This document shows positions 1,790 through 57,651 of a stretch of DNA of 64,000 bases, piece after piece. The translations under genes and the position numbers were made by a program. Under the pieces are notes generated by a model. It saw nothing but the letters and a program-made list of their open reading frames with translations, ran no database searches and had not been told where the DNA came from. The stretch is from a virus (lineage: Duplodnaviria; Caudoviricetes). Positions within the stretch are counted from its first letter, which is position 1. Each line of letters starts with the position of its first letter. The DNA lies in IMG/VR virus record IMGVR_UViG_2597490202_000002, positions 1-64,000 of that record, one strand, 5' to 3'.

Positions 1790-1843
1790 ACGCTTATTCT
1801 CTAATTGAAATTTAATTCAATCATCACGAGCAACTGCGATTAC

Positions 1844-1930
1844 TGGTGATGAACTAGGCAAGGTTCGCAGTACTGGTGAATAAGCGGTTAAACTTCCAGC
1901 GGGCTTTCGCCCCCTTACCTAGTCCATCAT
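1844..1930 (-). ncRNA. c4/P4-CI-like antisense RNA #1
   Basis: Long closing stem ending in CCA and a GNRA-type hairpin. Loops ACCGCTTATTC and ACTGCGA are complementary to GAATAAG and TCGCAGT, which occur both upstream in the leader and downstream near the ant start. Confidence 0.8.
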
Positions 1931-2117
1931 TGACAACTTTTCAAAGGGAGTGTCAATTTGGAACACCCTTTTGAAGTTTTAAGGGTCTTGCAATTTGCAA
2001 GTACCTTTAATCTGACTAGATTTTGGCTATAAAAAAAGTCGCTTTTGGCGACTATCATTATTACCGCCACTTATTCTTTCAGGACTGCGATCCCGACTTT
2101 CTGTTGAAAGTGGGGGT

Positions 2118-4913: not shown

Positions 4914-5073
4914 TTGACGCAATGAATTGTTAGATTTATAATTTAAACAAATCGAAGGCGTTGGAAATCTAAGTTACCCAAGGTCGATTTTATTAAGTGG
5001 GGGCGTTGGAAATCTAAGTTACCCAAGACCACTTAATATAAACCCCGAGCTGATGAGTTCGGGGTTTTTGTTT
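4914..5073 (+). ncRNA. Stand-alone ~120-nt structured RNA with two identical 26-nt units, including its promoter and terminator
   Basis: TTGACG-N17-TATAAT (4914-4942). GGCGTTGGAAATCTAAGTTACCCAAG at 4957-4982 and 5002-5027, each closed by a different stem. Intrinsic terminator at 5040-5073. Confidence 0.75.
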
Positions 5074-5560
5074 ATTGGTCATCATTGGGTTTTATGCTGT
5101 CGCCTTTAGGAATGACAGAAAACAACTCAGCACGGGGTTTCTTTGATGTTAACTCTAAAATAGCACGATCATTCACTAAATTACCGTAGCCATCGTGACG
5201 TTGGTGTGGGTTTTCTAGGGCGGTAGCTCGGTTTGATGGTACAAGGCAAGAATGAACGGATAATGCGCTTTCTGCTTGCTTTACCATATCGTTAATATTG
5301 TAACCGTCTTTGCTTCGGCTTTGATAATGATGGCGACCAATATAGACAATTTCATTACATTCAAGTGGTGGCAATTCTGCCTTTTTTCTATGTTGATTTA
5401 TATCAAGAAATTGTTTATCTGTGAATGAGCCTATTACTTGTAATTTCGCTTTCTTTCCTTGGCTTATTTCGGTTAGATTTTGTCTAATAAGTGCTTTTGC
5501 ATTTTCGTATAATGGCATAGATTGTATTTTCACTAAGTTATTTGGAATATATTCTAGCAA
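5072..5560 (-). CDS. Hypothetical protein, possible BECR-fold (PBECR-like) RNase
   Basis: RHH motif followed by a helix and beta-rich C-terminus ending LFSVIPK. The fold is inferred. True start is probably MPLYEN. Confidence 0.5.
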   Translation of the reverse strand: MLEYIPNNLVKIQSMPLYENAKALIRQNLTEISQGKKAKLQVIGSFTDKQFLDINQHRKKAELPPLECNEIVYIGRHHYQSRSKDGYNINDMVKQAESALSVHSCLVPSNRATALENPHQRHDGYGNLVNDRAILELTSKKPRAELFSVIPKGDSIKPNDDQ

Positions 5561-14460: not shown

Positions 14461-14540
14461 ATGATCGAGTGGGCGACTAATACAATACCGAAAGGGAATA
14501 CGTCCAGCCTGCCGTAGGCTTTCGAACCACTCGATCACCC
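14461..14540 (+). ncRNA. c4/CI-like antisense RNA #2
   Basis: TGATCGAGTGG..CCACTCGATCA stem. Loops GCCGT and TTTCGA are complementary to ACGG and TCGAAA in the leader and near the ant RBS. Confidence 0.8.
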
Positions 14541-14586
14541 TATTCACTAGGGTAAATCTTAATTTCGAAAATTAACGGAGTGACTT

Positions 14587-26683: not shown

Positions 26684-27112
26684 ATGGATATTGCTACGTT
26701 CAGAAAAATGTTTCCTGCTTATTCTGATAGTCAAACTTTTAGCAATGAGATGATCGAAATGTGGCTGGACGTAGCAAATGTTCATCTCAAAAAAGGCTGG
26801 TCGTTAAGTGGTAAAACCTACGAACATGCCATTATGTTGATGTTGGCTCATCTTCTTCATAGTGTTGCGAAAACTTCAAGCGGTAATGCTGAATCAGGAC
26901 CTGCTGGAATTGTGACATCTGCGACAGAGGGGAGTGTTAGTGTTTCTTTTGCAACACCTACGACAAAAGATGCGTGGGAATTCTGGCTTGCATCATCGCC
27001 TTATGGATTGCAACTTTGGGCATTATTGCAACAGTTAGGAACTGGCGGTTTGTTTATTGGTGGTTTACCAGAGCGAAGTGCAGTTCGTAAGGTTGGCGGG
27101 GTGTTCTTATGA
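26684..27112 (+). CDS. DUF4054 head-tail adaptor
   Basis: FRKMFPAY, S.TEGSVSVS, SPYG..W.L. Confidence 0.85.
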   Translation: MDIATFRKMFPAYSDSQTFSNEMIEMWLDVANVHLKKGWSLSGKTYEHAIMLMLAHLLHSVAKTSSGNAESGPAGIVTSATEGSVSVSFATPTTKDAWEFWLASSPYGLQLWALLQQLGTGGLFIGGLPERSAVRKVGGVFL

Positions 27113-27609
27113 GTCGGGCGGATAAGTTTAGAAAGGCTTTGCAAGATAAGATCGACAAATTGAGTGCAGCCAACAACAAAGTCGCAAAAGTCGGTATTGT
27201 TGAACATCAACATTATGATGATAACACGCCAGTAGCTTATATTGCTTCAATTCATGAATATGGTTCTCCTAGCAATAACATCCCGCCACGTCCTTTTATG
27301 CGCCCAACAGTATCAGAGAAAAAAGGTGAGTGGGCGAAGATAGGTAAGCAAATTCTGCAAAATGGCGGTGATGTCGATAGTATGCTTGAAATGGTTGGTT
27401 TAAGGGCTTCGGCTGATATTGTTGAAAAAATAAGTAATATTGATGTTCCTCCACTGGCAATTTCTACCAAAAAAGCCCGTAATCGTAAGGCTCACCAACA
27501 AACTGCCAAATATAACAAAAAGCCGAAAGCGGTGTCTATCAAACCTCTTGTAGATACTAAAGTATTAATCAGCTCAATCTCCCATATCGTGACAGATAAG
27601 GGGGATTAA
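27109..27609 (+). CDS. Neck / tail completion protein (HK97 gp10-like)
   Basis: HEYG..IPPRPFMR, KPLVDT. Confidence 0.8.
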   Translation: MSRADKFRKALQDKIDKLSAANNKVAKVGIVEHQHYDDNTPVAYIASIHEYGSPSNNIPPRPFMRPTVSEKKGEWAKIGKQILQNGGDVDSMLEMVGLRASADIVEKISNIDVPPLAISTKKARNRKAHQQTAKYNKKPKAVSIKPLVDTKVLISSISHIVTDKGD

Positions 27610-28167
27610 ATGCATTTTAGTCAAACTAATATCAAACGGATTGAAAGGCTATTGCTTTTATGTGCTTGTGATAAAGATTGGGATGAAAGCAAACATCCTA
27701 GAGCTGAAAATGGTCAGTTTGGGAAAGGGGCTGGTTCAGCTAAGAAAAACTTGGATAAAGAGGCAACAAAAATACCTAGCGTGACGGGTAAAGAGTTAGG
27801 TAACGCAAAAGACATTAAAGATCTGAGAACACGAGCAAGGCTTTATGCAATAGAACATTTCTCCGGAAAGAAGTTTGTTAATTTAAGTACAGGTAATGAA
27901 ATTCAGGTCGGTGCTAGTGGTATAAAACATACTATATCGGGTGCAGCAGAGGATTTGATTAAAACGATCCCTGCCATACCTGAACTAATTGAAACAGCGA
28001 CTTTAATGCATAAAAAGCAAGATAAAAGAGGCGATCCTAATGTTTTATCGGTTGAGATTTATAAAGCTGAAATGAATGTTATGGGTAAAAATGCCAAAAT
28101 GATATTAACAATCAAGCATTATAAAGATGGACGTAGGTATTATGATCATGGTTATATGCGAGAATAG
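27610..28167 (+). CDS. Putative virion-carried protein: WDESKHPR leader plus LPD3-like (possibly BECR-related) domain
   Basis: WDESKHPR..GQF motif; N..TG..I.V...GIKH..IPELI..A..YYDH pattern. Confidence 0.6.
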   Translation: MHFSQTNIKRIERLLLLCACDKDWDESKHPRAENGQFGKGAGSAKKNLDKEATKIPSVTGKELGNAKDIKDLRTRARLYAIEHFSGKKFVNLSTGNEIQVGASGIKHTISGAAEDLIKTIPAIPELIETATLMHKKQDKRGDPNVLSVEIYKAEMNVMGKNAKMILTIKHYKDGRRYYDHGYMRE

Positions 28168-28238
28168 AAGCAACGTAATAATCCAGCACCTTACCGCGTT
28201 CAAGTGCGGTACCTCTTAAATTATCACGCTGCTTCATT
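28167..28238 (-). ncRNA. Structured ~70-nt RNA convergent with the 27610 gene
   Basis: TTGATT-N16-TATAAT at 28246-28273; 16-bp closing stem with two G-U pairs on the minus strand; inner hairpin. Confidence 0.6.
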
Positions 28239-28282
28239 GGTTAAAATTATAGCTCTAATGATTATTTAATCAAGGATTTTAT

Positions 28283-28663
28283 ATGAACCTAAGATCTATT
28301 GCCAACCAACATATCACCACGGTAAACCCCAATATTCAGGCAACACTAAAACTAAACACAGGATATGAAACAAGCGACACAGGAAAGCGAGTATCAAAGT
28401 TTGAAGAATTTCAGGTCAGCATTCAGGCTCAAAGTCTGAGTACGCAAGATTTATCTTTGTTTGATACGTTGGCACAACAAGGGCAAATGCTGAATGTGTA
28501 TGTTTCAGGGCAAATCCACGCGCTAAGACGCATTTCAAATCAAGGTGCGGATAAGCTTGTTTTTAAAGCATTTGGCGAAGAGAGCGAATCTGAATGGCTA
28601 ATTAAATCCGTTTCTGAGAGCTTTCCTAACTGGTGTAAGGTGGTGGTATGGCGGCAGACATAA
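28283..28663 (+). CDS. Head closure / neck protein
   Basis: Synteny; Q.Q.LS and W.KV motifs. Confidence 0.7.
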   Translation: MNLRSIANQHITTVNPNIQATLKLNTGYETSDTGKRVSKFEEFQVSIQAQSLSTQDLSLFDTLAQQGQMLNVYVSGQIHALRRISNQGADKLVFKAFGEESESEWLIKSVSESFPNWCKVVVWRQT

Positions 28664-57574: not shown

Positions 57575-57651
57575 TGGCGACCGCAGAGAGACTCGAACTC
57601 TCAACCTACTGCTTAGAAGGCAGTTGCTCTATCCGATTGAGCTATGCGGTC
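57575..57651 (-). tRNA. tRNA-Arg(UCU)
   Basis: Cloverleaf GACCGCA..TGCGGTC-GCCA, D-loop TAGCTCAATCGGA, anticodon loop CTTCTAA, GTTCGA. Confidence 0.95.

Follow-up and report, generated by a model that had tools for sequence, protein, structure and literature searches.

A structured RNA gene convergent to the virion-linked LPD3 gene of tailed phages and its possible role as an RNA antidote

In a tailed-phage provirus (Caudoviricetes; IMG/VR record IMGVR_UViG_2597490202_000002), the gene for a small protein with an LPD3 domain was found to be followed directly by a structured RNA gene, which lies on the opposite strand and is predicted to be transcribed toward it. The stretch of DNA analysed, called the window below, is the first 64 kb of this 85-kb record. 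The RNA, named T1, and a second RNA family, T2, take the same place in related phages. In 31 of the 32 loci with an LPD3 at least 39% identical to that of the window, T1 and/or T2 lay right behind the stop codon, always on the opposite strand. We suggest that this RNA gene is tied to a virion-linked, BECR-like LPD3 protein and that the RNA would serve as a trans-acting antidote, and we assign this reading a probability of about 0.45, somewhat below even odds. The antidote or immunity role is a hypothesis and appears to be the best reading of the evidence given below.

The RNA element behind LPD3 and its two families

The gap between the LPD3 gene (27610-28167, plus strand) and the head-protein gene that follows measures 115 nt (28168-28282). 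The original prediction, made from the letters of this DNA, had placed in it a minus-strand promoter just after the LPD3 stop, a 16-bp stem fully paired on the minus strand alone with two G-U pairs, and an inner hairpin, and each of them was located. The promoter is of sigma-70 type (-35 TTGATT, 16-nt spacer, -10 TATAAT; 28246-28273, minus strand), and its -10 box ends 10 nt before the closing helix. The stem arms 28167-28182 and 28220-28235 form 16 pairs; at 28173/28229 and 28177/28225 the plus strand has A-C where the minus strand has G-U. When the minus strand was folded with RNAfold, the closing helix P1 extended to 19 bp (5′ arm 28217-28235, 3′ arm 28167-28185) and is supported by both fold and covariation. 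The folding energy was -35.8 kcal/mol, with a z-score of -4.5, and 0 of 200 shuffles were as good. P1 encloses an internal loop and the inner hairpin. The 5′ side of the loop (28212-28216) lies within AAGAGGU, which is identical in all distinct T1 sequences (alignments A4 and A7), and its 3′ side (28186-28191) lies within the conserved motif AAGGUGCUGG. The hairpin itself (28192-28211) has a 6-bp stem and the loop ACUUGAAC, with the loop motif GAAC. A U-rich tail, UAUUCUC, follows P1 at 28160-28166, overlapping the last LPD3 codons and giving a weak terminator-like end. The first stem coordinate, which is the last base of P1, coincides with the G of the TAG stop codon, so that the RNA touches the LPD3 reading frame with its 3′ end. 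From the fold and the covariance model described below, a minus-strand RNA of about 75-80 nt is predicted, with its putative ends at 28160 and 28239.

Sites of the TTGATT-16-TATAAT type are common in AT-rich DNA, with 5 found in 4 kb against 10.2 expected. A lone site is not above chance, and therefore the weight of the promoter rests on its conservation in relatives. To this end 45 LPD3 loci, comprising 36 viral contigs and 9 species genomes, were gathered via the alignment of relatives. Folding of the DNA 3′ of the LPD3 stops gave recurrent structures, always stronger on the strand opposite LPD3. The family of the window, T1, consists of a long closing helix, AAGAGGU, a hairpin with a loop ending in GAAC, and then AAGGUGCUGG. 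T2 is unrelated to T1 in sequence and consists of an outer helix, a CGG/CCG clamp, a GAGGU/ACCUU helix, a GUUCAA bulge, a hairpin with a 7-nt loop, and a U run. The covariance model of T1 (R1) scored 85.3 bits in the window at 28166-28238 (minus strand) and, in 298 kb searched (the window and 46 loci), gave 14 matches, which lay in the window and 10 loci and were all opposite LPD3. The T2 model (R2) gave 33 matches in 31 loci, all opposite LPD3 and directly behind its stop, and zero matches in the window. Neither family has a match in Rfam 15. A scan of the whole window at gathering scores gave nothing at the element, and with E-values up to 5 no match at the element was seen in 7 loci (the window and six related loci).

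The structures of both families are supported by covariation. In the R1 alignment, 17 of 25 T1 pairs showed compensatory change, the observed values were reached in 0 of 500 shuffles, and slid controls were 32-47% paired. RNAalifold on a plain MAFFT alignment of seven T1 sequences recovered the inner closing helix and the hairpin; of the 13 pairs that it predicted, 9 were compensatory. For T2, 92.8% of cells were paired as compared with 33-45% when slid, both-side changes were present in 14 of 20 pairs, and four of five covariation measures beat all 500 shuffles. The G-U cells outnumber A-C cells by 31:7 in T1 and 29:3 in T2. The promoter is conserved as well: of 12 distinct T1 units, 11 have a -10 hexamer with at least 5 of 6 letters at 1-9 nt ahead of the structure, as do all 19 T2 units other than those placed directly after a T1 unit. 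The remaining four T2 units stand in tandem with T1 and are served by its promoter. On the opposite strand, a 5-of-6 hexamer was seen just once. The U run of T2 extends into the stop codon of LPD3 (coding strand, TGAAAAA). The tails of T1, though U-rich, are weaker than those of T2, and the U runs of the relatives are clearer than that of the window. Because of the covariation, the G-U asymmetry and the conserved -10 box, T1 qualifies at the sequence level as an independently promoted minus-strand structured RNA gene, as had been foreseen.

A stem that works on the plus strand only, as a terminator, a processing site or a stabiliser of the late mRNA, is one rival reading. The plus strand of the window does fold (-27.3 kcal/mol, z -2.6, 5 of 200 shuffles as good). 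However, it has A-C mismatches where the minus strand has G-U, in the proportions just given, and one G-U pair is retained in 17 of 17 T2 sequences. Moreover, it is the minus strand that bears the conserved -10 box and the U-rich tail, and the plus strand lacks a U run after the stem. These features make a plus-strand role hardly credible.

Candidate coding and mimicry roles of the element were also considered. There is no plus-strand open reading frame (ORF) of 40 aa or more in 28168-28282, so no gene for a downstream immunity protein. A 41-aa minus-strand ORF (28112-28237) was rejected as a small protein, since it is not conserved on inspection of the relatives' sequences: its frame has a stop in L003, and its start codon is ACG or absent in L040 and L004b. 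The inner loop had been compared with an anticodon loop. This comparison was not borne out, because the loop is 8-10 nt long, its conserved part is GAAC, and neither ARAGORN nor Rfam found a tRNA at the element, so that a tRNA or anticodon mimic was dropped. GAAC is present in all T1 units except the L004b/L035b variant, which has GAAA. A Shine-Dalgarno mimic was considered for T2 and rejected: the GGAGG stretch is paired and covaries (GACGU/ACGUU, GCGGU/ACCGU), and therefore the sequence itself is not kept.

RNA sequencing (RNA-seq) runs were also consulted. The stretch was contained in 12 of the 24 runs listed (three studies); four were compared as assembled contigs, which come without strand, ends or local depth and neither show nor exclude a minus-strand transcript. 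In these contigs, related strains carry the variant 28233 T>C, by which an A-U pair becomes G-U on the minus strand and A-C on the plus strand. Two runs had no cover over 27782-28009; this goes with a 268-nt deletion described below and has no bearing on expression.

Linkage of T1 and T2 to LPD3

The original prediction had called for a survey of the DNA 3′ of LPD3 genes for inverted promoters and covarying stems, and it is this survey that gave T1 and/or T2 at 31 of 32 loci. The exception, L042 from Mannheimia indoligenes, carries a different structured element of about 115 nt at 2846-2965, also on the opposite strand (z -3.5). A TAAAAT box was seen there by eye and none was returned by the promoter scan.

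The linkage was also examined in the reverse direction. A strict T2 pattern was run against 2.9 million viral contigs and returned 26 stretches. A convergent LPD3 gene abuts 21 of these sites, and one more (L008, at a locus edge) has it on the same contig, giving 22 of 26. Two further sites abut an 18-aa C-terminal remnant of LPD3, PBECR3 having replaced LPD3, and the last two are lone copies in accessory regions, which score well against the model and have a -10 box each. An initial T1 pattern with 16 fixed bases proved insufficiently specific, returning at least 117 stretches, and R1 matched 0 of the 80 loci listed. A stricter pattern gave 13 stretches; L165, L172, L176 and L177 were chance matches to it, without the closing helix. 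All five model-confirmed T1 sites in metagenomes were convergent to LPD3 at a distance of 20-89 nt (80 listed of at least 118 stretches), figures that represent a sample and not a census. In surveys of species genomes with stricter filters, T1 was present in 1 of 151 Pasteurellaceae and 2 of 151 Neisseriaceae, and T2 in 1 of 151 Burkholderiaceae, which was the starting genome. In the isolated Burkholderia phage BgManors32 (OK665842.1), T2 scored 86.8 bits (L199, 2986-3058) in a 148-nt gap behind LPD3, where it is unannotated; the LPD3 gene itself is annotated as a hypothetical protein (UEW68637.1). In genetic terms, T1 and T2 are partners dedicated to the LPD3 domain associated with the portal, and this linkage is well supported.

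An independent prophage small RNA with host targets, sitting in a recombination-prone slot beside LPD3 and functionally uncoupled from it, would agree with the lone copies in other contexts, and with the use of one slot by two unrelated RNA families and at least one more structured element. However, the RNA and LPD3 are neighbours almost without exception, whether one starts from LPD3 (31 of 32 loci) or from the RNA (22 of 26 T2 sites and, among the 80 metagenome loci listed, all 5 T1 sites), and in the phage contig L002, described in the next section, the RNA is gone together with LPD3. An uncoupled small RNA is decidedly improbable on these grounds.

Copies of the RNAs that stand away from LPD3 bear on how they might act. 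A lone T1 with the promoter TTGACA-17-AATAAT was found on a Pasteurellaceae chromosome (L179, 1501-1572; G030:C4:85807-85878), flanked by genes that, judged from their ORFs, are YibQ-like and uridine-phosphorylase-like. The genome that bears it gave no match to LPD3. In this copy, the hairpin stem and the closing helix are wholly replaced by other complementary sequences, and AAGAGGU, GAAC and AAGGYGCUGG are kept. Likewise, a provirus with a lone T2, rated 100% complete, gave no LPD3 match. Neisseria-type phages, on the other hand, carry T1 and T2 in tandem, or T1-T2-T1 arrays, behind a portal-LPD3 gene. The arrays lie at 3013-3272 in L004, 3015-3277 in L005 and 3503-3757 in L035. In the first T1 units of L004 and L005 the arms are mismatched to each other, which suggests recombinant or decaying copies.

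One further observation was made by eye. The conserved UGAAC of the T1 loop (window 28198-28205) is complementary over 5-6 nt to the GUUCA/GUUUA of the T2 bulge (an example of this 5′ bulge is L016, 3020-3030). T1 and T2 would occur in one transcript solely in the Neisseria-type phages.

The main rival to an antidote is plain cis-antisense control, in the manner of type I systems or of lambda OOP. Here the RNA would pair with its perfect complement in the late polycistronic mRNA after the LPD3 stop, and RNase III would cut the duplex, or convergent transcription would interfere, protein binding being unneeded. As a result, leaky late transcripts would be silenced in the lysogen, or LPD3 would be uncoupled from the downstream head genes. 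Such control would suit the convergent layout, the conserved promoter and the position of the RNA 3′ end at or over the LPD3 stop codon, and the complement of the RNA is necessarily within the late transcript. Nevertheless, lone copies far from any LPD3 cannot work in cis. The loop and internal-loop nucleotides are invariant while the stems drift, a pattern that automatic cis complementarity does not need, and tandem arrays of two or three units exist. Plain antisense control thus accounts for the layout yet leaves the lone copies and the conserved loops without an explanation, and we consider it unlikely. A trans-acting RNA antidote would agree with the lone copies and with the conserved loops, and the nature of the LPD3 protein is considered next with this in mind.

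The LPD3 protein, its exchange and its model

The LPD3 gene of the window encodes a stand-alone form of 185 aa with a basic isoelectric point of 9.5. It matches Pfam LPD3 (PF18798) with an E-value of 1.1e-26 and 93.7 bits against a cut-off of 27. The match spans residues 67-178 (27808-28143) and covers profile positions 1-114 of 114. PF18798 was matched by 17 of 17 members of the protein alignment (A1). The expected placement of an LPD3-like gene in the head operon was borne out. The gene is preceded immediately by a Neck1/tail-completion gene (27109-27609) and followed by a head-protein gene (28283-28663). Further upstream lie the genes for a cement protein (23609), the major capsid protein (25107) and a DUF4054 protein (26684), and beyond the head-protein gene lie a neck terminator (28648) and a DUF3383 sheath gene (29164). 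The head-protein gene is the site of an insertion in related strains: in all four RNA-seq contig sets compared, 440 extra letters replace 5 at 28292-28298, just within the gene start and, read along the minus strand, about 20 nt ahead of the T1 -35 box.

The protein search returned 16 LPD3 relatives, together with three proteins that are alike only in the first 20-40 residues and then continue as PBECR1. The nearest LPD3 relatives, P0001-P0005, are 59-95% identical; a DNA match to the window locus was not found in the collection of phage genomes. In many relatives LPD3 is the C-terminal domain of a portal protein (Phage_portal_3 followed by LPD3), and in others it is a gene of its own between the portal gene and a DUF2213 gene. 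In T2-type phages, the DUF2213 gene adjoins the T2 promoter. The 5′ part of one DUF2213 gene, BCAM1066 of B. cenocepacia K56-2, was reported to be essential by transposon sequencing and CRISPR interference (PMC8770471), which would be an odd result if BCAM1066 encodes a phage head protein, the role of DUF2213 genes in the phage loci studied here.

The N-terminal part of the protein appears to be a common leader for several effectors. Residues 1-38 (27610-27723) are 95-100% identical to those of PBECR1-bearing proteins. Within them lies a junction motif, W24-DESKHPRAENGQ-F37, here WDESKHPRAENGQF (27679-27720; alignment A1), which precedes the effector domain. The motif W-x-E-x-x-H-P-R-x-x-N-G-x-F, or in a looser form W-x-E-x-x-H-x-R-x-x-x-G-x-F, was searched for in the relatives. 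It precedes LPD3, PBECR1 or PBECR3 in 11 of 13 sources scanned; there were two matches in L035 and none in L022, L024 or L042. One leader is therefore seen with several effectors, namely LPD3 in the window, PBECR1 in L002 and P0017-P0019, and PBECR3 in L035. P0017, for instance, is 100% identical over 21% of the query and carries PF18809. In L002, a syntenic phage contig, the same flanking genes stand in the same order, and the effector gene is 95% identical over residues 1-38 and then encodes PBECR1. That gene overlaps the start of the next one, leaving zero gap, and neither R1 nor R2 matches there. The swap in L002, with PBECR1 present and both RNA and gap absent, indicates that the RNA element comes and goes with the LPD3 module.

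A further arrangement was seen in L168 (9402-11925), L175 (11001-13306) and L205. In these, the portal gene continues with PBECR3 after the junction motif, an 18-residue LPD3 remnant abuts the RNA array, and a further LPD3-like domain is present in a long downstream ORF. The layout resembles the displaced modules of polymorphic toxin loci.

Because of the portal fusions and the leader common to the PBECR1 and PBECR3 variants, the view of LPD3 as a virion-linked, interchangeable effector domain is supported, in line with the virion-associated effector gene of the original prediction. Its delivery into cells is a supposition.

A structural model of LPD3 was made with AlphaFold2 from the 17-sequence alignment. 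The mean predicted local distance difference test score was 82, with block means of 91-96 over residues 61-180. The model consists of helices followed by a four-stranded antiparallel sheet. In VIA-align, an aligner that does not depend on Foldseek, its top matches were BECR RNase toxins (7m5f_C, Z 6.2; 6cp9_A, 5.8; BrnT, 5.1), followed by RelE, MqsR, YafQ and colicin D at Z 4-4.8, and with ParE and HigB the range is 3.4-4.8. Foldseek against the PDB gave no match at an E-value of 0.001 or better. Its top row was the CdiA-CT toxin of K. pneumoniae 342 (6cp9_A) at 0.015. In a library of viral structures, the model matched polyvalent proteins in their LPD3 domains and, at a weaker level, proteins with a nuclease annotation. 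Two groups of residues are invariant in LPD3: K106-H107-T108, within helix 102-109 of the model, and D179-H180-G181 on the last strand (176-184), where H180 is near-invariant. BECR enzymes are described as having a His in the pre-alpha element, often after a Lys, and a second His on the last strand (preprint 10.64898/2026.08.28.747851). In the portions of that preprint that were available, LPD domains are not mentioned. Judged by its model, LPD3 would resemble colicin-like BECR ribonuclease toxins in fold and invariant residues, and the nuclease-like nature that structure prediction was to probe appears plausible, with BECR RNase toxins the best matches at a modest Z of 4-6.2.

The protein could also use the RNA as substrate, cofactor or cargo, that is, bind or process it, take it into the capsid, or be guided by it to a target. 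The fusion of LPD3 to the portal in relatives and the basic nature of the domain are in keeping with this, and the conserved single-stranded motifs suit recognition. On the other hand, a housekeeping-type promoter that faces a strong late operon would be an odd supply of a lytic-phase cofactor, and lone RNAs in genomes without LPD3 would be partnerless. We think such a role quite unlikely. The antidote reading invokes binding of the same motifs, with inhibition of the protein as the outcome.

A possible RNA antidote among known systems

In the mechanism that we propose, T1 would be transcribed from its own sigma-70 promoter toward the LPD3 gene and would end at the closing helix that abuts the LPD3 stop. 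The RNA would then act in trans as an antidote, binding the LPD3 domain through its conserved internal-loop and hairpin-loop nucleotides and keeping LPD3 inactive. Such inhibition would operate in the producing cell until the LPD3 protein is packaged. In lysogens, and in cells with lone RNA copies, it would give protection from LPD3 carried in by related phages. Action in trans on LPD3 is suggested because single-stranded motifs are invariant on drifting stems, because lone copies exist, and because the loci have features like those of polymorphic toxins: a common leader and junction motif, BECR-type domains that can be exchanged, displaced remnants, and a downstream element that can form arrays. 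Inhibition would be the simplest trans action, as in type III toxin-antitoxin pairs. One case of gene loss fits this reading. In contigs from two runs of one study, a frame-breaking deletion of 268 nt within LPD3 (27756 joined to 28025; 27757-28024) leaves the RNA region in place, as would be expected if the toxin had been lost and the antidote retained, although this was seen in one case only. A broader proposal is that T1, T2 and further RNAs are RNA immunity factors for polymorphic, phage-delivered, portal-linked BECR-type RNases, with the lone RNA genes as orphan immunity. We put this forward tentatively, as a possibility with the odds leaning against it.

Several observations weigh against an RNA antidote to a BECR-like LPD3. 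The closest locus with DNA available, L042 (61% identical), carries another element with weak promoter evidence, and the RNA type does not follow LPD3 relatedness simply, Neisseria-type phages carrying both T1 and T2. Where a distant LPD3 domain is part of a long polyvalent protein (L033, L038), there is no gap behind it. Pairing in the T1 model alignment reaches just 70.5%, owing to register shifts, and few independent lineages underlie T1. For T2, the fifth covariation measure, further pair types, was not above the shuffles (28 against 28.1; 322 of 500). As to the protein, the fold match is modest, and a Z below 8 may mean a common arrangement only; Foldseek also gave NTF2-like folds at E-values similar to that of the toxin. 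A PBECR or RelE-type Pfam match was absent in the 17 LPD3 members with E-values up to 10, and a search of the LPD3 profile against PDB sequences gave one row only, at chance level. Finally, a convergent RNA with its complement in a late mRNA can be a plain antisense regulator.

The proposed pair was compared with known toxin-antitoxin systems. Type III systems (ToxIN, CptIN and TenpIN; AvcID, PMC10511110) are alike in being compact two-gene modules on mobile elements, with a small, labile and constitutive RNA that would neutralise a protein toxin by direct binding. The antitoxin of the ToxIN type is a direct-repeat array upstream of the toxin, on the same strand, and is processed by the toxin; type III toxins have the ToxN/Kid-like fold. 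By contrast, the RNA here is a single folded unit with its own promoter, on the opposite strand and downstream of the protein gene, and the tandem arrays in LPD3 relatives consist of different units. In addition, LPD3 resembles in its model the BECR RNases and is a virion-linked phage domain. The type I loci of the 3′-overlap class are similar to ours in the tail-to-tail layout, in a promoter that belongs to the RNA and in the overlap of one RNA end with the 3′ end of the partner gene, our transcript being a predicted one. In that class (txpA/RatA, bsrG/SR4, pAD1 par), convergent antisense RNAs overlapping at the 3′ end act by base pairing on genes for small membrane-peptide toxins. LPD3, however, is a 185-aa soluble basic protein, alpha/beta globular in its model, rather than a small hydrophobic peptide, and T1 keeps invariant loops and also exists as lone copies.

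Polymorphic toxins, including the MuF toxins of temperate phages and CdiA-CT/CdiI, are alike in their conserved leader, junction motif and swappable C-terminal effector, as well as in a specific element that is linked to the toxin and lies immediately downstream, in remnants of displaced toxins and in orphan copies. To our knowledge, every described immunity factor of polymorphic toxins is a protein. At LPD3, by contrast, the linked element is an RNA on the opposite strand and not an immunity-protein gene. The MuF toxins of temperate phages have been presented as polymorphic toxin-immunity systems (PMC5576092). LPD3 and PBECR domains were described in polyvalent proteins by Iyer et al., 2017 (PMC5512222), and the protein of the window is a solo LPD3 among phage structural genes, as described there for solo forms. 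In the passages of that paper that deal with these domains, LPD1-40 are called domains of elusive function, LPD3 stands outside the list of potentially enzymatic ones, and no function is assigned to it, this being one paper that treats the domain at length. The terms 'noncoding' and 'RNA gene' are absent from its main text. The BECR-like fold and the RNA partner of LPD3 are what the present analysis would add to that account. No description of an LPD3-RNA pairing was found in the literature searched.

A second locus in the window had been grouped with LPD3 in a general class of genes faced by a convergent RNA. At 4914-5560, a 162-aa ORF on the minus strand (5072-5560) is faced by a small RNA gene on the plus strand, which has a promoter, a hairpin unit repeated twice, and a terminator. 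The layout is real, and the protein shows no likeness to LPD3 in sequence: the ORF has no Pfam match, and hhalign against LPD3 gave a probability of 0.2%. A wider habit of genes faced by a convergent RNA is plausible. Elsewhere in the window, Rfam found a C4 antisense RNA (1842-1934, minus strand, 53.5 bits) and sRNA-Xcc1 (14463-14544, plus strand, 57.4 bits), and the sole ARAGORN result was a tRNA-Arg(TCT) gene at 57575-57651 on the minus strand.

The finding bears on how LPD3 loci are to be read. LPD3 is widespread in phages and plasmids, and its dedicated, covarying RNA partner makes a function of the domain open to testing and offers a starting point for experiments. The space behind an LPD3 gene should not be taken as empty, as illustrated by the unannotated T2 of BgManors32, the one isolated phage record examined. 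If the RNA is indeed an antidote, RNA antitoxins would be extended to BECR-like enzymes and to virion-borne phage effectors, and T1 and T2 would be the first RNA immunity factors in a system like that of the polymorphic toxins.

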